A stretch of DNA of 47,136 nt from NCBI RefSeq assembly GCF_004010195.1, contig NC_057756.1:4980050-5027185 (forward strand), given 5' to 3'. Shown piece after piece: positions 10,384 to 44,584 of the stretch. The translations under genes were made by a program, and so were the position numbers. The stretch comes from Chiloscyllium plagiosum (lineage: Eukaryota). Below the pieces are notes generated by a model. The model ran no database searches. It was not told the origin of the DNA and worked only from the letters and a program-made list of their open reading frames with translations. Within the stretch, counting starts at the first letter, position 1. The number at the start of each line of letters is the position of its first letter.

Positions 10384-11202
10384 GATTTTTCTCCTGCTCC
10401 TCGGATGCTGCCTGACCTGCTGTGCTTTTCCAGCACCAGCCTCTCGACGCTGATCTCCAGCATCTGCAGTCCTCGCTGTCTCCTTCCAGGGACATGGGCC
10501 AAGTGCTGGAAAAATGGGACTAGATTAGGTTGGGATATTCTGGTCGGCGCGGACGAGTTGGACCGAAGGGCCTGTTTCCGCGCTGGAGGACCTAATGACT
10601 CTGAAAAAGCCAGCACTATCGGGAGAGAACAACAGATGAAAGCTGATAGAACGGAGAAACAGTTGCGAGTGGACAAAAGAATTGAGTTTGATCTTTCGCT
10701 CTGGCCATACTGCAGACAGGAAACAAATTACCAGTCGACAGAAACGAACAGGGCAGGGCTTTCCTGCTGACACACAAGAGAACGTGGACAAAAAAAAAAG
10801 AAACCCCAGGTACAACTTTCTACTTTGAGATGCGATTAAACGTCCAACTAACAAAACTGTGGCAACATTTAAACAAGTTCTACTCATTCAGGAAACGGCT
10901 GGAGCTAACACGAAGCGATTTGAGTGGAACAAAGTTTTGGCACCGACCCCAGCCCACAGATCTGATAGCCTCATTGTTTCTGAACTGTGACCCATCGGGT
11001 CAAAAGGTCATGCCAGACCCTCACTGGGACAGAATTGTTCTGTCAGAAGGGGTGTCCATTCAAAGCATTTGTAAGTGCACAGGAAGTGCTCTACAGGATG
11101 GGAGCTGGATTGCTAGTCTCAAGGGATATAATTCATAGCCATATTAAAGGCTCACAGCTCTTGGAGGAAGTAAGAGGTAGAAGAGAAGTGAGGGATGGAA
11201 TT

Positions 11203-17857: not shown

Positions 17858-18700
17858 TACGGTGGCTCAGTGGTTAGCGCTGCTGCCTCACAGCACCAGG
17901 GTCCCAGGTTCGATTCCAGCCTCAGGCGACTGTCTGTGTGGAGTTTGCACATTCTCCCTGTGTCTGCGTGGGTTTCCTCCAGGTGCTCCGGTTTCCTCCC
18001 ACAGTCCAAAGATTTGCAGGTCAGGGTGGATTGGCCGTGCTAAATTGTCCCATAGTGTCCAGGGATGTGTAGGTTAGCGTGGATTGGCCATGCTAAATTG
18101 TCCCATAGTGTTCAGGGATGTGTAGGTTAGGGTGGATTGGCCATGTTAAATTATAGAGAGAAAGTGAGGACTGCAGATGCTGGAGATCAGAGCTGAAAAT
18201 GTGTTGCTGGAAAAGCGCAGCAGGTCAGGCAGCATCCAAGGAAGGAAAATCGACATTTCGGGCATAAGCCCTTCTTCAGGAAGGGCTTCTTTCCTGAAGA
18301 AGGGCTTATGCCTGAAACGTCGATTCTCCTTCCTTGGATGCTGCCTGACCTGCTGCGCTTTTCCAGCAACACATTTTCAGCATGTTAAATTATACCATAG
18401 TGTTCAGGGATGTGTAGGTTAGGGTGGATTGGCCATGCTAAATTGTCCCATAGTGTCCAGGGATGTGCAGATTAGGGTGGATTGACCATGTTAAATTATA
18501 TCATAGTGTTCAGGGATGTGCAGATCAGGGTGGATTGGCCATGCTAAATTACCCATCGTGTTCAGGGATGTATAGGTTAGATGCATTAGTAAGGCGCAAA
18601 TATAGGGTAGTGGAATAGGTCTGGGTGGGTTACTCTTTGTTGGGTCGGTGTGGACCTGTTGGGCCGAAGGGCCTGTTTCCGTACTGTAGGGATTCTAATT
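17858..18700 (+). mobile_element. HE1-type SINE with expanded 53-bp internal array, interrupted by palindromic PLE P2
   Basis: tRNA-like head at 17858-17925, repeated ggattggccatgctaaatt units, tail gggccgaagggcctgtttcc. Confidence 0.9.
18156..18380. mobile_element. Palindromic non-autonomous PLE insertion (P2) with a hammerhead motif on each strand
   Basis: Near-perfect inverted arms around 18283-18290; exact 14-bp TSD catgttaaattata (18142-18155, 18381-18394). Motifs at 18252-18279 (-) and 18294-18321 (+). Confidence 0.9.
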
Positions 18701-23500: not shown

Positions 23501-23988
23501 ATATGAGTTTATCTTGCATTTGCAGAATTATATTTGCAGATACATTTCATCTTGTTCAAAAAGCACACAATCTGGAGGCAGTCAGGCAATGGGACATTGC
23601 AACAATTCTTACTGGGAAACAGGACCAGTCTGTTTGGAACACAGACAGACTCTAACCTTACAACTTTAATGCATTGTCTGAGCTGAGATGGCACCTTTTT
23701 TTAAAAATAAAACCTTAAGTTATCTCGGGAATGTAACTTGAAAGAAGTTCTGGAATTTACATATAAATGCCTCAAACCCACATCCCCATTCTAAGTGATT
23801 AAAGACTTGACAGCATTCTAGGTTTGTTCAATACATTGCATCAGTTGTGTGACATGATCTTTTATGATAAATTCTGTGTCCTATGATCCTGCCCCACTAG
23901 CTACCTGATGAAGGAGCAGCGCTCCGAAAGCCAGTACTTCCCAAGTAAGTCTGTTGGACTTTAACCTGGTGTTGTGTGCTTTTGAACG
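23500..23988 (+). mobile_element. PLE pseudo-LTR of a third family with a hammerhead motif at 23905-23933
   Basis: CTGATGA A GGAGC AGC GCTCC GAAA GCCA (cleavage triplet altered), followed by ctgttggactttaacctggtgttgtg terminus. Confidence 0.7.
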
Positions 23989-23999
23989 TAGGTTATAAG

Positions 24000-24600: not shown

Positions 24601-24966
24601 ACCCATTCCTAACCTATATTTACCTCTGAGTATGGGCAATTTAGCACGGCCAATCCACCGGTGATTGGACCCATTCCCCTAACCTATATTTACCTCTGAG
24701 TATGGGCAATTTAGCACGGCCAATCCACTTTAACCTGCACATCCCTGGGCATTATGGGGCAATTTAGCATGGCCAATCCACCCTAAACTGCACATCCCTG
24801 GACACTATGGGGCAATTTAGCATGGCCAATCCACCCTAACCTACACATCCCTGGGCACTATGGGACAATTTAGCATGACCAAACCACTCTAACGTGCACA
24901 TCGCTGGGCACTATGGGACAATTTAGCATGGCCAAACCACTCTAACGTGCACATCGCTGGGCACTG

Positions 24967-25355
24967 AACCCTCCAACCACAAGGGATGAACTCGGATTTC
25001 ACCAGTTTCCTCATTTCCCCTCCCCCCAGCCTGTCTCAGTCAAATCCATCAAATTCAGCACCGCCTTCCTAACCTGCAATCTTCTTCCCGACCTCTCCGT
25101 CCCCACCCCAGTCTGACCTATCACCCTCACCTTGACCTCTTTCCACCTATCACATTTCCGACGCCCCTCCCCCAAGTCCCTCCTCCCTATCTTTTATCTT
25201 AGCCTGCTGGACCAACTTTCCTCATTCCTGAAGAAGGGCTAATGCCCGAAACGTCGATTCTCCTGTTCCCTAGATGCTGCCTGACCTGCTGCGCTTTTCC
25301 AGCAACACATTTCCATCTCTGATCTCCAGCATCTGCAGACCTCACTTTCTCCTCG
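24967..25355 (+). mobile_element. Neptune-type PLE 3' end / pseudo-LTR
   Basis: Ends the ORF (TLQPQGMNSDFTSF), then pyrimidine-rich UTR, hammerhead, and terminus ctccagcatctgcagacctcactttctcct. Confidence 0.85.
25228..25255 (+). ncRNA. Minimal type I hammerhead ribozyme motif, intact core
   Basis: CTGAAGA A GGGC TAAT GCCC GAAA C GTC. Confidence 0.8.
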
Positions 25356-25950
25356 ACAATTTAGCTTGCCCAATCCACCCTAACCTGCAGATCGCTGGGC
25401 ACTATGGGACAATTTAGCTTGCCCAATCCACTCTAACCTACACATCCCTGGGCACTATGGGACAATCTAGCATGGCCAATCCACCCTAACCTGCACATCC
25501 CTGCACACGATGGGATAATGTAGCATGGCCAATCCACCCTAACCTACGCATCCCTGGACACTATGGGATAACTTTGCATGGCCAGTCCACCCTAACCTGC
25601 ACATCTTTGGATTGAGTTGCCGAGGCTGGAATCGAACCTGGGCCCTGGCACTGTGAGGCTGGTGTGCTTACCACTGAGTTCCCGTGCTGTCCATTAAATA
25701 CCAGCCCAGCGATGCCCACATTCCATGAGTGAATAATGACAGCTGAGAGCAACTCTGTAAAACGGTGCGTGGCCGTCATGAGGACAATATTGAGTCAGAC
25801 AGCTAAAGCCGACTGGTAGATTTTAAGGAGTGTTTCAAAGGGAGCTGAGCAGGATGTGTGCCTGGTCAAGTGAACATTCAGCCACAGACAATGCAAGAGT
25901 CAACACTGAAAATGCTCAAAAAGTGGAAGATCTTAGACATCATTGAGGCT

Positions 25951-33999: not shown

Positions 34000-34118
34000 G
34001 AAAAAAAAAACCCAGAAGTTGCTGGAGAAACTCAGCAGGTCTGGCAGGTGTCTGTGCAGAGAGAAAGCAGAGTCAACATTTCTTGTCCAGTAACTCTTCT
34101 TCAGAGAACTCTGATGAT
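34000..34118 (-). mobile_element. Short PLE-like terminus of another family with a decayed hammerhead
   Basis: Reverse strand CTGAAGA AGAGTTACTGGACAA GAAA TGTT, then ccagacctgctgagtttctccagca. Confidence 0.6.
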
Positions 34119-34409
34119 ACAAATCTTGAGCTTTAAATTTAAAACAGGTTTAGGAAACAGTGACGTGAATCTTAAAATGACTCACAGGAGAGACGAAGGT
34201 GGTCTTTTTTTAAAGAAATGTGTTGAAAGCTCAAAAGGTACAGCACCCCAAAACGTACAGGTTACTCAGCACATCTGACACACGGGTTCTGTTGGAAACA
34301 TTGCCTGTGATTAACCCCGTGTCAAAGGTTTGTGTGCTCACTGTCAAACTCTGCGTGACGATCCGGCGTCTCCAGGAGCGAGGTGCTGCACAATGCAAGT
34401 TGTTGTTGT

Positions 34410-34890
34410 GCACTATGGGACAATTTAGCATGGCCAATCCACCCTAACTTGCTAAATTATCCCACAGTGCTCAGGGATGTGCAGGTTAGGGTGGATTGGC
34501 CATGCTAAATTATCCCACAGTGCTCAGGGATGTGCAGGTTAGGGTGGATTGGCCGTGCTAAATTATCCTACAGTGCTCAGGGATGTGCAGGTTAGGGTGG
34601 ATTGGCCGTGCTAAATTGTCCCATAGTGCCCAGGGATGTGCAGGTTAGGGTGGATTGGCCGTGCTAAATTGTCCCATAGTGCTCAGGGAAGTGCAGGTTA
34701 GGGTGGATTGGCCATGCTAAATTGTCCCATAGTGTTCAAGGATGTGTAGATTAGGTGCATTAGTCAGGGGTAAATGTTGAGCAATAGAGTAGGGTAGGGG
34801 AATAGGTCTGGGTGGGTTACTATTCAGAGGGTCAGTGTGGGCTTGTCGGGCCGAAGGGCCTGTTCCCACACTGTAGGGATTATAATCTTA
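34410..34890 (+). mobile_element. HE1-type SINE 3' part with 53-bp array; first unit (34410-34450) inverted
   Basis: Period 53 (gcaggttagg at 34481 and 34534); head absent. Confidence 0.85.
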
Positions 34891-36547: not shown

Positions 36548-39500
36548 CACTGTAAAACACTGGGGTACTATAATAGAGGGGACAGATGTATCACTGTGTA
36601 ACACTGGGGTACGGTATTGTTGGGGACAGGTCTGTGACTGTGTAACACTGGGGTACTGTAATGGTGGGGACAGGTCTGTCACTGTATAACACTGGGGTAC
36701 AGTACTGGTGGGGACAGGTCTGTCACTGTGTAACACTGGGGTATGGTATTGGTGGGGACAGGTCTGTCACTGTGTAACACTGGGGTACCGTACTGGTGGG
36801 GACAGGTCTGTCACTGTGTAACACTGGGGTACAGTACTGGTGGGTACAGGTCTGTCACTGTGTAACACTGGGGTACAGTACTGGTGAGGACAGATCTGTC
36901 ACTGTGTAACACTGGGGTACAGTACTGGTGGGGACAGGTCAGTCCCTGTATAACACTGGGGTACAGTACTGTTGGGGACAGGTCAGTCCCTGTATAACAC
37001 TGGGGTACAGTACTGGTGGGGACAGGTCAGTCCCTGTATAACACTGGGGTACAGTACTGTTGGGGACAGGTCAGTCCCTGTGTAACACTGGGGTACAGTA
37101 CCGGTGGAGACAGGTCTGTCACTGTATAACACAGGGGTACAGGTCTGGTGGGGACAGGTCTGTCTCTGTGTAAATCTGGGGTACAGTACTGGTGGGGAGA
37201 GGTCAGTCACTGTATAACACAGGGGTACAGTACTGGTGGACACAGGTCTGTCAGTGTATAACCCTGGGGCATTGTACAGGTGGGGACAGGTCTGTCACTG
37301 TATAACACTGGGGTACAGTACTGGTGGGGCTAGGTCTGTCTCTGTGTAACACTGGGGTACAGTACTGTTGTGACAGTTCTATCGCTGTATCACACTGGGA
37401 TACAGTATTGATGGGGACAGGTCTGTCACTGTGTAACACTTTGGTACAGTACTGGTGGGGACAGGTCTGTCTCTGTATAACACTGGTGTACAGTACTGTT
37501 GGGAAAGGTCTGTCACTGTGTACTGGGGTACAGTACTGATGGGGATAGGTCTGTCACTGTGTAACACTGGGGTACAGTATTGGTGGACACAGGCCTGTCA
37601 CTGTGTAACACTGGGGTACAGTACTGGTGGGGCTAGGTCTGTCTCTGTGTAACACTGGGGTACAGTATTGGTGGGGACTGGTCTGTCACTGTGTACTGGG
37701 GTACAGTACTAGTGGGGACAGGTCTGTCACTGTGTAACACTGGGGTACAGTACTGGTGGGGACAGGTCTGTCACTGTGTAACGCTGGGGTACAGCGCTGG
37801 TGGAGACAAGTCTGTCACTGTATAACACTGGTGTACAATACTGGAGGGTACAGGTCTGTCACTGTATGACACTGGGGCAGTGCACTGGTGGGGACAGGTC
37901 TGTTACTGTATAACAGTGGGGTACAGTACAAGTGAGGACATGTCTGTCACTGTGTAACACTGGCGTACAGCACTGGTGGAGACAGGTCTGTCACTGTATA
38001 TCACTGCAGCACAGTACTGGTGGAGACATGCCTGTTACTGTGTTACACTGGGGTACCGTACTGGTGGGGACAGGTCTGTCACTGTGTAATACTGGGATAC
38101 AGTACTGGTGGGGACAGGTCTATCACTTTATAACACTGGGGAACAGTACTGGTGGGAACAGGTCTGTCACTGTGTAACACTGGGGTACAGTACTGGTGGG
38201 GACAGGTCTGTCACTGTATAACACTGGGGTACAGTGCTGGTGGAGACATGTCTGTTACTGTGTAACACTGGGGAACAGTACTGGTGGGGACAGGTCTGTC
38301 ACTGTATAACACTGGGGAACAGTACTGGTGGGGACAGGTCTGTCACTGAATAACACTGGGGTACAGTACTGGTGGGACAGTTCCGTCGCTGTATAACACT
38401 GGGATACAGTACTGGAGGGTACAGGTCTGTCACTGTATAACACCGGGGAACAGTACTGGTGGGGACAGGTCTGTCACTGTGTAACACTGGGATACAGTAC
38501 TGGAGGGTACAGGTCTGTCACTGTATAACACTGGGGAACAGTACTGGTGGGGACAGGTCTGTCACTGTCTAACACTGGGGTGCAGTGCTGTTGGAGACAT
38601 GTCTGTTACTATGTAACACTGGGATACAGTACTGGTGGGGACAGGTCTGTCATTTGTATATCACTGGGGAACAGTACTGGTGGGCACAGGTCAGTTACTG
38701 TATAACACTTTGGCAAATACTGGTGGGGACAGGTCTGTCACTGAATAACACTAGGATACCGTACTGGTGGGACAGGTCCGTCGCTGTATAACACTGGGGT
38801 ACTGTACTGGTGGGGACAGGTCTGTCACTGTGTAACACTGGGGTACCGTACTGGTGGGGACAGGTCTGTCACTGTGTAACACTGGGGTACAGTACTGGTG
38901 GGCACAGGTCTGTCACTGTGTAACACTGGGGAACAGTATTGGAGAGTACAGGTCAGTCACTGTATAACACTAGGGCACAGTACAGGTGGGGACAGGTCAG
39001 TCACTGTATAACACTGTGGTGCATTACTTGTGTGGACAGGTCTGTCACTGTGTAACACTGTGGCAAGGTACTGTTGTGGCCAGGTCTGTCACTGTGTAAC
39101 AGTGGGGTACAGTACTGGTGGACACAGGTCAGTCACTGTATAACAGTGGGGTACAGTACTGGTGGACACAGGTCAGTCACTGTATAACACTGGGGTACAG
39201 TACTGGTGGGGACAGGTCTGTCACTGTGTACAGGGGTACAGTACTGGTGCGGACAGATTCAACGCTGTGTAACACGGGTACAGTACTGGTGGGGACAGGT
39301 CTGTCACTGTGTAACACTGGGGTACAGTACTGGTGGGGACAGGTCTGTCCCTGTATAACACTGGGGTACAGTACTGGTGGGGACAGGTCTGTCACTGTGT
39401 ATAGGGGTACAGTACTGTTGGGGACAGGTCTGTCAGTGTATAACACTGGGGTACAGTACTGGTGGGGACAGGTCTTTCACTGTATAACACTGGGGTACAG

Positions 39501-39935
39501 TAAAGGTGGATACAGGTCTGTCAGTGTATAACACTGGGGTACAGTAAAGGTGGGGACAGGTCTGTCACTGTTTACTGGGGTACAGCACTGGGGGGGACAG
39601 GTCTTTTGCTGTATAACATTGGGGTACAGTACTGGTGGGGACAGGTCTGTCACTGTGTAACACTGGGGTACAGTACTGGTGGGGACAGGTCTGTCACTGT
39701 ATAACACTGGGGTACAGTACTGGTGGGGACAGGTCTGTCACTGTATAACACTGGGGTACAGTACTGGTGGGGACAGGTCTGTCACTGTGTAACACTGGGG
39801 TACAGTACTGGTGGGGACAGGTCTGTCACTGTATAACACTGGGTTCAGTACAGGTGGGGACAGGTCTGTCACTGTATAACACTGGCGTACAGTACCGGTG
39901 GGGACAGGTCTGTCTCTGTATAACACTGGGTTCAG
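36548..39935. repeat. 44-bp tandem satellite, about 77 copies
   Basis: Unit CACTGGGGTACAGTACTGGTGGGGACAGGTCTGTCACTGT(G/A)TAA. Confidence 0.97.
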
Positions 39936-41660: not shown

Positions 41661-42664
41661 TAGAACTTCGGAACTACGTTGGACCAGATTAAAAGCCAGG
41701 GCTCTCTGATTGGACCAGATTAAAAACCAGGGCTCTTTGATTGAACTAGGTTAACAGCCAGGGCTCCCTGATTGGACCAGGTTAACAGCCAGTGCTCCCT
41801 GATTGGACAGGGCTAACAGCCAGTGCTCCCTGATTGGACAGGGCTAACAGACAGGGCTCCCTGATTGGACTGGGCTAACAGCCAGTGCTCCCTGATTGGA
41901 CCGGGTGAACATACAGGGCTCCCTGATTAGACCGGGTTAACAGCCAGGGCTCCCTGATTGGTCCGGGTTAACAGCCAGGGCTCCCTGATTGGACCGGTCT
42001 AACAGCCAGGACTCCCTGATTGGACTGGGTTGACAGCCAGGACTCCCTGATTGGACCGGGTTAACAGCCAGGGCTCCCTGATTGGACTGGGTTAACAGCC
42101 CGGGCTCCCTGATTGGACTGGGTTAACAGCCCGGGCTCCCTGATTGGACCGGGCTAATGGCCAGGGCGCCCTGATTGGACCGTGCTAATGGCAAGGGATC
42201 CCTGACTAGGCCGGGTTAACAGCCCGGGCTCCCTGATTGGACTGGGTTAACAGCCAGGGGTCCCTGATTGGACTGGGTTAACAGCCCGGGCTCCCTGATT
42301 GGACTGGGTTAACAGCCAGGACTCCCTGATTGGACCGGGTTAACAGCCAGGGCTCCCTGATTGGACTGGGTTAGCAGCCCAGGCTTCCTGATTGGACTGG
42401 GTTAACAGCCCAGGCCCCCTGATTGGACTGGGCTAATGGCCAGGGCTCCCTGATTGGACCGGGCTAATGGCCAGGGCTCCCTGATTGGACCGGGTTAACA
42501 GCCCGGGCTCCCTGATTGGACCGGGTTAACAGCCAGGGCTCCCTGATTGGACCGGATTAACAGCCAGGACTCCCTGATTGGACCAGGTTAACAACCACGG
42601 GTCCCTGATTGGACTGGGTTAACAGCCAGGACACCCTGATTGGACCAGGTTAACAGCCAGGGAT

Positions 42665-42888
42665 AAAGTGAGGACTGCAGATGCTGGAGATCAGAGCTGA
42701 AAATGTGTTGTTGGAAAAGCGCAGCAGGTCAGGCAGCATCCAAGGAGCAGGAAAATCGATGTTTCGGGCAAGAGCCCTTCTTCAGGAAGAAGCCCTTCCT
42801 GAAGAAGGGCTCTTGCCCGAAACGTCGATTCGCCTGCTCCTTGGATGTTGCCTGACCTGCTGCGCTTTTCCAGCAACACATTTTCAGC
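42665..42888. mobile_element. Palindromic non-autonomous PLE insertion (P4) with a hammerhead motif on each strand
   Basis: Inverted arms around 42789-42795; TSD-like taacagccagggat / tagcaaccagggat (42651-42664, 42889-42902). Motifs at 42758-42785 (-) and 42799-42826 (+). Confidence 0.9.
42799..42826 (+). ncRNA. Minimal type I hammerhead ribozyme motif, intact core
   Basis: CTGAAGA A GGGC TCTT GCCC GAAA C GTC. Confidence 0.8.
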
Positions 42889-43471
42889 TAGCAACCAGGG
42901 ATCCCTGATTGGACCGGGTTAGCCGTTCCAATCTGGAAACTCATATTCTATGAGCTCCATCAGGCTGACCTCATTATAATTAGTATAGTGTTTGTTTTGC
43001 CAACAAGGAGTGCCACCTTTGGAGAACTGGAGATAAAAGCTATTCATGCCTTTCCAAGAAAGCACACCTTATCACCGATTCCAACAATGAATGATGAATA
43101 ATATTGATTTGTACCGTCTGGAATGCATTTAACATTTTCTGGGTTTTCCCTCTGGCCTCAAAGTGTTTGCTGGGTTTCTACAATAAAAGAGCAAATCTGT
43201 GTCTCTCAGCAGAGCACCAAGTCACCTTATTAATTTTGCTCCATTTACAGCCGCACTATAAACCTTTCATACTCGATAACGTTTTCAGTGAGACATTGAG
43301 TTGGAGGTGTCATTGCAAGTTTTTGTAGATAGCTGCTCATTTTAATTCTGCTCAACTTGTACCAGAACGATACATCAATAAAAAGACCTGGAGAGACTCC
43401 ATGGGAAAAAAAAGTCTGTTCTTTTCCCAGGTAATTTGGAAAAGTTAGATCCCGGAGTTAGGCCTGACTTG

Positions 43472-43842: not shown

Positions 43843-43940
43843 GAGAGATCACGAGCCTTATTTGTTTACCATGGAGGTCAGTCACTGAACATACTTACAA
43901 GAGGCTACCAGTATACATTTAATAAAAGGGAACGGCATTT

Positions 43941-44429
43941 AAAGTCTGTGTGAAGATTTGTAGCTCGGGTGCTCGTTGTTGTGGTTCTGTTCGCCGAGCT
44001 GGGAATTTGTGTTGCGGATGTTTCGTCCTCTGTCTAGGTGACATCCTCAGTGCTTGGGAGCCTCCTGTGAAGCGCTTCTGTATCTTTCCTCTGGCATTTG
44101 TAGTGGTTTGAATCTGCCGCCTCCGGTTATCAGTTCCAGCTGTCCGCTGCAGTGGTCGGTATATTGGGCTCAGGTCGATGTGCTTATTGATTGAATCTGT
44201 GGATGAGTGCCATACCTCTAGGAATTCCCTGGCTGTTCTCTGTTCCCTGGCACTCATCCACAGATTCAATCAATAAGCACATCGACCTGAGCCCAATATA
44301 CCGACCACTGCAGCAGACAGCTGGAACTGATAACCGGAAGCAGCAGATTCAAACCACTATAAATGCCAGAGGAAAGATACAGAAGCGCTTCACAGGAGGC
44401 TCCCAAGCACTGAGGATGTCACCTAGACA
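43941..44429. mobile_element. Penelope-like element (probably Poseidon clade) with about 180-bp inverted arms (P5)
   Basis: QRTAREFLEVWHSSTDSINKHIDLSPIYRPLQR (GIY-YIG C-terminus); arms at about 44030-44212 and 44248-44430; TSD gggaacggcattt / gggaatggcattt (43928-43940, 44430-44442). Hammerhead CTGAGGA T GTC..GAC GAAA CATC at 44017-44050 (-). Confidence 0.9.
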
Positions 44430-44584
44430 GGGAATGGCATTTTTATTAAATTCAAAATGAAAAAAAAAAGCAATATTGGATTGTGCAAGAGACTCAAAAC
44501 AATCTCAATGCAACAATCAGTCATAAATATTTTGTTGTTTTACCTTCAACATTAACCTTATAGATATGTAAACCTCACAACAAA

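Follow-up and report, generated by a model that had tools for sequence, protein, structure and literature searches.

How short palindromic insertions come to carry a hammerhead ribozyme motif on each strand, and whether they spread as units or are built afresh, is the question raised by four loci (P1 to P4) in a 47,136-nt stretch of the Chiloscyllium plagiosum genome (NC_057756.1, positions 4,980,050 to 5,027,185). This stretch is called the window here, and all coordinates refer to it. With a probability of roughly two in three, each palindrome consists of two 5′-truncated stubs of a Penelope-like element (PLE), set head to head by twin target-primed reverse transcription, likely with run-off at the RNA 5′ end, and closed by end-joining.

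P2 (18156–18380) is a palindrome with an arm-to-arm identity of 94% over 189 nt. It is bounded by an exact 14-bp target-site duplication, CATGTTAAATTATA, with matching + strand copies at 18142–18155 and 18381–18394, and its excision in silico restores one unit of the 53-bp tandem array (18004–18571) in which it lies. A PLE tail of about 36 nt (18156–18191, − strand) is present in one arm only. The outer end of this tail is the putative first start site of the reverse transcriptase (RT), and a 47-mer across it has 12,864 exact genome matches. The shared part of the tail-bearing arm (18192–18282) has the element sense on the − strand and a 5′ end at −3, on a scale where the C of CUGA is 0 and the predicted cut falls after +27. 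An 8-nt centre filler (18283–18290) follows, which matches adjoining arm sequence and varies among copies in the centre tables. The tail-less arm (18291–18381, + strand) ends at the putative second RT start site and has 1 nt in common with the duplication. A 2-nt deletion specific to P2 is found in both arms.

P4 follows the same plan (42651–42902; element 42665–42888, duplications 42651–42664 and 42889–42902), with an arm-to-arm identity of 92% over 194 nt. The first-pass annotation had described P2 and P4 as inverted pairs of PLE termini with a hammerhead core in each arm, which these identities confirm, and as flanked by 14-bp duplications. The latter is exact in P2; in P4 the length is right but there are two mismatches, and the position at the edge of a 31-bp array makes the duplication less clean. 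The window holds minisatellites at 36548–39930 (77 copies of 44 bp) and 41679–42662 (32 copies of 31 bp), P4 lying at the end of the latter.

P1 and P3 had been assigned to the same plan, and the assignment stands in part. Like P2 and P4, P1 has hammerhead cores (CUGAnGA, stem II, GAAA) in back-to-back order on its two strands, but P1 (10187–10498) belongs to an older subfamily, is oriented opposite to P2 with its tail on the right, and has an 11-bp duplication with one mismatch and a 63-bp filler. P3 (26066–26262) is a decayed pair of arms, again flanked by an 11-bp duplication with one mismatch, but with deletions in both arms and the hammerhead motif intact on neither strand. The filler of P1 (10290–10352) is 77% similar to 10891–10951, about 600 bp downstream, a stretch whose first few bases are those of the cDNA end. 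No other match was found among the loci gathered, and the filler looks like a templated insertion captured from nearby DNA.

A single-armed copy on the + strand (25150–25352) runs upstream into the pseudo-LTR (pLTR) and has TTATCT and an initiator-like sequence upstream of its motif. This copy (about 25090–25352, array 24704–25605) and P2 both lie in 53-bp tandem arrays of one SINE-like repeat, which we take to be HE1-like. An inverted arrangement in a 53-bp SINE-associated array at 34402–34533 forms a hairpin, with miRNA-model matches below the gathering scores.

Each arm corresponds to the 3′ terminus of a PLE, and copies that run upstream reach a GIY-YIG coding region. One long copy (L288) contains a 749-codon open frame that ends upstream of the same terminus, with an RVT_1 match (E = 1.2e-8) and a GIY-YIG match (E = 2.9e-4) that, at 21.5 bits, is just below the 22.6 cut-off. 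It also carries the CX4CxxC linker CNRRRCNTCAH and IIYCIRCSRCGLLYIG, with two cysteines in the GIY-YIG core; a linker of this type and the core cysteines are described as features of Neptune and Nematis (PMC8557442). These domains and the linker support the Neptune-type RT/GIY-YIG parent proposed earlier, which from its sequence is best called Neptune-like, the features being common to Nematis too. All 20 long copies examined are 5′-truncated, with assembly gaps at such places, and two of them (L301 and L287) have a short inverted arm at the 5′ end. A complete copy preceded by a pseudo-LTR is missing from these 20, so the order of ORF after tail in the RNA stays a proposal.

The hammerhead was identified by pattern and by the published description of minimal hammerheads (PMC4209133). 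Its features are those of the minimal type I class: CUGAnGA, a bulged base, G10.1-C11.1 in stem II, GAAA, a palindromic 15.2-16.2 pair, NUH and a short helix I. Loop II differs between subfamilies and stem II is kept; no compensatory change was seen. An Rfam scan of the window up to E = 1 returned nine matches, none of them to a hammerhead family and all of hairpin type with scores below gathering, and the four in P2 and P4 with E < 0.3 are to hairpin miRNA models, below the gathering score. In P2, the − strand motif (18248–18282; CUGA from 18279, predicted cut 18252/18251) has a C15.2-to-U change, and the + strand motif (18291–18325; CUGA from 18294, predicted cut 18321/18322) has a G·U pair closing stem II. 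The claim of hammerheads on both strands holds for P2, where both motifs pass a pairing test only through G·U pairs left by C-to-T changes, but not for P4, which passes on the + strand alone.

The P2 RNA is computed to fold into a rod at −181 kcal/mol, a z-score of −23.6 relative to 200 shuffled sequences; for the other strand the value is −178 kcal/mol. Viroid-like RNAs have a rod-like architecture, and back-to-back hammerheads in a hairpin are a signature used in searching for them. The likeness to viroids and retrozymes that had been drawn for these loci is nevertheless geometric only: each palindrome strand has a single sense motif that is preceded by its complement, and in P4 the hammerhead fold, when imposed, is computed to be about 57 kcal/mol less favourable than the rod. 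The ribozyme is predicted to be buried by the rod fold in the palindrome. Minimal motifs are reported to need a partner on the same strand and to cleave poorly (PMC4209133). This need and the folding cost both speak against a self-contained non-autonomous family, in which a hairpin RNA with ribozymes on both strands would be mobilised as a unit. So does the state of the motifs: both are intact in none of 16 random and 2 of 13 tail-selected palindromes, and the higher figure of 16 in 28 comes from palindromes picked for their likeness to P2.

The proposal of such a family had more to recommend it, including high copy number, shared outer ends and some recurring centres. PLE pLTR sequences can be mobilised in trans (PMC3846280), and retrozymes have been argued to derive from pLTRs (bioRxiv 10.64898/2026.07.22.740005). 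Genome-wide, at least 6,683 loci have a tight junction in which two back-to-back core halves are separated by at most 30 nt; exact counts gave 17,207 copies reading through upstream and 38,564 arms for one 21-mer, and reversed-pattern controls of the genome searches gave no matches. A sample of 60 stretches of the 3.56-Gb assembly, picked by round coordinates (575,795 non-N bases), contained 75 insertions with arms of at least 60 nt; 21 of them were paired, 17 with a gap of at most 30 nt. By extrapolation, head-to-head junctions are estimated at about 1e5 genome-wide. The 30 best BLAST-like matches of P2 look uniform only through selection for P2 likeness, and P2-selected copies were listed apart or left out in the counts of motifs, boundaries and pair lengths. 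The shared end points noted in the window are borne out genome-wide by the tabulated palindrome ends.

Whether the palindromes descend from a unit can be read from how their arms are related. Across 121 tight palindromes drawn from all the loci gathered (118 pairs scored), the within-copy arm distance was 0.060, as against 0.106 between left arms, 0.098 between right arms and 0.101 between left and right arms of different copies. Arms pair by copy and there is no left or right lineage. Non-CpG diagnostic sites agreed within copies in 107 of 116 and 110 of 117 cases (62 expected for each), and 44 rare alleles were common to both arms, compared with 2.2 (maximum 10) in 500 re-pairings. CpG sites agreed in 83 of 104 cases with 80 expected, no excess over chance. 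Since the non-CpG sites agree and the CpG sites are at chance, the two arms of a copy started out alike and did not become so afterwards. That CpG sites disagree as often as chance predicts rules out gene conversion as the source of the likeness.

The centres are heterogeneous as well, with 41 types among 57 copies. Recurrent centres occur on different haplotypes; the commonest sits on two, and its right ends range between 88 and 125. The boundary at which palindrome arms stop is also that of single-armed copies. No copies descending from a master unit, with a fixed centre and side-specific variants, were found in the samples of 121 and 57 copies. It is almost certain that the palindromes are made anew at each insertion. 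Replication as a unit is rejected for the bulk, the samples leaving room for a small subfamily, and the self-contained ambisense ribozyme family of the first-pass annotation becomes very improbable: its arms pair by copy and not by side, its centres differ, solo arms share its boundary and most copies lack two intact motifs.

RNA reads are compatible with this. In one poly(A) single-cell run, 2,298 reads lie on the terminus, in both orientations, and 94% of them continue into unlike sequence. At 97% identity, 543 reads match the P2 region, of which 99% continue into unlike sequence, and P2's own flanks have almost no reads. No pile-up of read ends was seen at the terminus in this library, a type blind to caps and small circles. 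The RNA search suggested earlier found family sequence on both strands, as a hairpin RNA mobilised as a unit would have it, but in this single poly(A) run the reads run into unlike flanks and have no discrete ends. They fit passive read-through from many copies.

The outer ends of the palindromes fall at two sites. Of 98 young palindromes examined, 88 are flanked by duplications. Within these 88, the duplication is 14–16 bp long in 73, the tail-side end falls at reference position 123–125 in 87, and the tail-less arm ends at 85–91 in 77. The two sites lie about 35 nt apart and leave a 30–40-bp tail at one end of the unit only. Duplications accompany 88 of 96 tail/tail-less palindromes versus 18 of 42 solos, and the caller found none in 96 cases on swapped flanks. 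Tail-less single arms also exist, 7 of 15 with duplications. In vitro, the Poseidon RT PAc uses two internal start sites that bound the tail, and both nicked strands are extended (PMC11167929). By analogy, the two outer ends may correspond to these two RT start sites. All four palindromes with a tail on both arms (L027, L058, L124 and L229) are without a target duplication, unlike the tail/tail-less pairs, and are possibly two separate events joined across a deletion.

The inner ends of the two arms differ in a directional manner. Arm 5′ ends lie within 7 nt of each other in 70 of 100 pairs; the tail arm is shorter by at least 8 nt in 23 and the tail-less arm in 7, an asymmetry with p = 0.005. 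In three copies (L088, L091 and L051), the tail arm stops near the start of the other arm, which runs 39–313 nt further upstream, with duplications intact, as L1 twin priming on a single RNA would leave them. In the 23 pairs with a short tail arm, copying of one arm from the other is excluded in both directions. A later asymmetric deletion at the centre could mimic some of the 23, without favouring one arm. Target duplications are also kept by twin-primed L1 insertions (PMC11702581). It is very likely that each palindrome embodies two RNA-templated syntheses.

These lengths bear on a fold-back of the tail-primed cDNA, which would stop at the boundary, snap back, be copied as the second arm and join the other target end. 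Under such a step the second arm could hold nothing beyond what the first contains, at odds with the 23 against 7 bias and its extremes of 39–313 nt, and leaves unexplained the second-arm ends at 85–91, where single arms also begin. It would account for the fact that the arms of one copy nearly always have the same haplotype; in about 4 of 121 copies (L010, L107, L123 and L202) the arms are of different haplotype, which fold-back does not explain and which weakly suggests two RNAs. Fillers that are local copies, such as GGGCTT, would also suit a self-primed cDNA, and a hairpin with a 3-nt loop is one way to draw the commonest centre, which occurs in 10 of the first 50 listed loci by eye. Self-priming has been proposed for head-to-head pLTR junctions (PMC3846280). 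On balance, fold-back is unlikely. The stereotyped fold-back at the ribozyme that had been offered as the alternative to a unit family is right in that a stereotyped step occurs at each insertion, but this step is not at the scissile bond and twin priming is the likelier form of it.

Where both syntheses end can be located closely. Among 73 young-subfamily arms not selected for a junction, 56 end at −1 to −9 (12, 4, 19, 10, 6, 3, 0, 1 and 1 at successive positions) and 17 read through. Ends at −3 number 19 and ends at −4 number 10 in this set; because −3 is at least as common as −4, trimming must be assumed. Once a copy extends as far as −12, it continues at least to −37 in all 30 cases, several of them ending at assembly gaps. 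No arm stops at the cut site among 100 listed arms inspected by eye, with one near +35, and ribozyme cleavage is on this count ruled out as the cause of the boundary. The boundary lies 32 nt upstream of the cleavage site, and its edge is the A of TC-A-TTCC, which presumably represents an initiator-like sequence, judged against the consensus. Of 64 read-through copies, 43 have TTATCT starting at −30 and 13 have it starting at −32, and the hexamer is kept across young and old subfamilies despite differing intervening bases. In D. virilis, Penelope is transcribed from an initiator inside the pLTR (PMC2377424). D. virilis Penelope has a splice acceptor, but a boundary of that kind was rejected here, there being no AG upstream in any subfamily displayed. 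From its sequence context, the boundary is somewhat more probably than otherwise the transcription start of the source RNA.

An extra base at the junction is consistent with such a start. After …GGAAT the next base is C in 3,810 cases and A or T in 2,556, in a genome with 20% C and 59% A+T, and C follows the boundary base in 7 of 10 cases in the unselected set. In L197, L206 and L208 the target offers no C at that place. One extra base at complete L1 5′ ends marks copying of the cap (PMC11702581). One palindrome centre, for which 1-nt homology is also an explanation, contributes about 600 of the 3,810 (18 of the 100 rows listed); C matches the target in 5 of 11 solos (by eye), and some C's match the partner arm. 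The flanking G of one truncated source copy is an unlikely origin for the excess, as the sequences after the C are diverse. In an older subfamily no C excess is seen, C and T each following in 10 of the 100 rows listed (by eye), and the edge is softer, with ends out to about −24.

The boundary A is also the first base of helix I, where AUUC pairs with GAAU or GAUU. This coincidence, together with the older subfamily's lack of a C excess, would be expected if twin synthesis were halted by RNA structure or a protein footprint at the ribozyme, such as a dimeric hammerhead or a bound element protein, and ribozyme folding has been found to depend on the element's protein (PMC11167929). An RT moving 3′ to 5′ would, however, meet the 3′ strand of helix I about 30 nt earlier, where there is no pile-up of ends. 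Neither the initiator-like sequence nor TTATCT at −30 nor the untemplated C would follow from a structural stop. Nor does it sit well with a second hammerhead-bearing PLE family, in which 15 head-to-head pairs (100 rows listed, by eye) have scattered centres with spacings between 34 and about 2,200 nt. A boundary set in this way is rather improbable.

The second family is represented in the window by a palindrome at 43930–44430, with 183-nt arms that are 98% complementary, a 35-nt spacer, a hammerhead motif near the outer ends and flanks that suggest a duplication of about 11 bp. One of its 21-mers has 13,254 exact genome matches, and its head-to-head pairs have scattered spacing. The family is probably of Poseidon type, the nearby frames having no CX2-5CxxC linker. 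Inversion is general in this genome, and the pinned centre is particular to the P2-type family. A third hammerhead-bearing terminus at 23905–23990, single-armed and with a different stem II, likely belongs to another PLE family, and the degraded terminus at 34018–34104, from a more distantly related PLE family, has a broken hammerhead motif on the − strand.

The sequence of events under twin priming can be outlined as follows. A GIY-YIG endonuclease, the presumed enzyme, would nick both target strands at the observed spacing of about 14–16 nt; nicking of both strands has been demonstrated in vitro for another PLE (PMC11167929). One nick would prime cDNA synthesis at the end of the RNA tail and the other about 35 nt further in, with both cDNAs usually copying the same RNA or RNA of the same source, in keeping with the concordance of the arms. 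The tail-primed strand would follow behind and abort early more often, a suggested cause of the observed length bias. Both syntheses would traverse an uncleaved ribozyme, as the lack of stops at the cut site indicates, and most would end no more than 9 nt upstream of CUGA at the initiator-like A, the putative start site, with a frequent extra C expected from cap copying (an excess confined to the young subfamily). Trimming of both free 3′ ends would follow, and they would be trimmed no further before being joined, presumably by host end-joining, via short homologies and locally copied fillers. The resulting palindromes would be dead ends that, being without the predicted upstream part of the promoter, decay; read passively inside host transcripts, they would form the predicted rod that buries the ribozyme.

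Much of this architecture is already known for PLEs. Head-to-head inverted pLTRs, a one-sided tail and a target duplication are standard (PMC3846280, PMC8557442), and the endonuclease-bearing groups Penelope/Poseidon, Neptune, Nematis and Naiad resemble the palindromes in having an inverted 5′-truncated copy, a 30–40-bp tail at one end and duplication around the whole unit (PMC3846280, PMC8557442, PMC2377424), as well as a hammerhead and an initiator-like sequence in the pLTR. Here, by contrast, both arms are usually reduced to 90–125 nt, centres are confined to 9 nt just upstream of the ribozyme core, and the estimated copy number is about 1e5. Dual minimal type I hammerheads on opposite strands in Schistosoma mansoni, attributed to truncated PLEs, are alike, but those motifs lie 100–700 bp apart, with no target duplications or junction analysis in the available part of the report (PMC4209133), whereas those described here abut within 0–30 nt.

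Target-primed reverse transcription by PAc of Anolis is similar in that both strands are nicked and extended, two internal RT starts are used and uncleaved RNA is the main template. PAc, however, belongs to the Poseidon clade and not to Neptune, its ORF starts inside the ribozyme, and the accessible account does not deal with inverted products, with how second strands are joined or with run-off at the 5′ end of the RNA (PMC11167929). LINE-1 twin priming likewise involves a second nick that primes a second cDNA, kept duplications, an end-joined inversion and an extra 5′ base, but L1 inversions barely overlap and lie at scattered places, while palindrome arms overlap almost fully and begin at two fixed starts (PMC11702581). 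Retrozymes and viroid-like RNAs share the non-coding character, a type I hammerhead, a PLE pLTR origin and a predicted rod-like fold (bioRxiv 10.64898/2026.07.22.740005; see also PMC7229834). Retrozymes are same-strand tandem repeats processed to circles, in contrast to the single inverted pairs with mostly broken motifs found here (bioRxiv 10.64898/2026.07.22.740005), and no tandem repeat lies over P2 or P4.

No prior account of minimal centre-pinned palindromes, PLE twin priming or a PLE strong-stop was found in a search that covered few subscription journals, no Repbase and no supplements. What appears to be new, the architecture being familiar, is the junction statistics and the mechanism that they suggest. 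The origin of the tandem or inverted ends and the one-sided tail of PLEs has been described as still undefined (PMC8557442), and only the first steps of PLE insertion have been rebuilt in vitro (PMC11167929).

The palindromes offer in vivo evidence for twin priming and, less surely, for run-off at the RNA cap. Their junctions predict a one-base transcription start, two RT starts, a template that stays uncleaved and second arms not copied from the first. They also call for caution, since back-to-back hammerhead hairpins can arise in bulk as by-products of retrotransposition, and palindromes inside host transcripts would yield long double-stranded RNA. A further and tentative proposal, with less than an even chance of being correct, is that the PLE RT has an LTR-like strong-stop: synthesis would begin at the tail, pass through the uncleaved hammerhead and reach the cap after about 125 nt, and would then have to jump to a repeated RNA end for a full element with its pLTR to arise, and the palindromes and short solos would be failed jumps from two fixed starts on both target strands. 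If this is true, the estimated 1e5 or so frozen intermediates would explain the tandem and inverted ends of PLEs.
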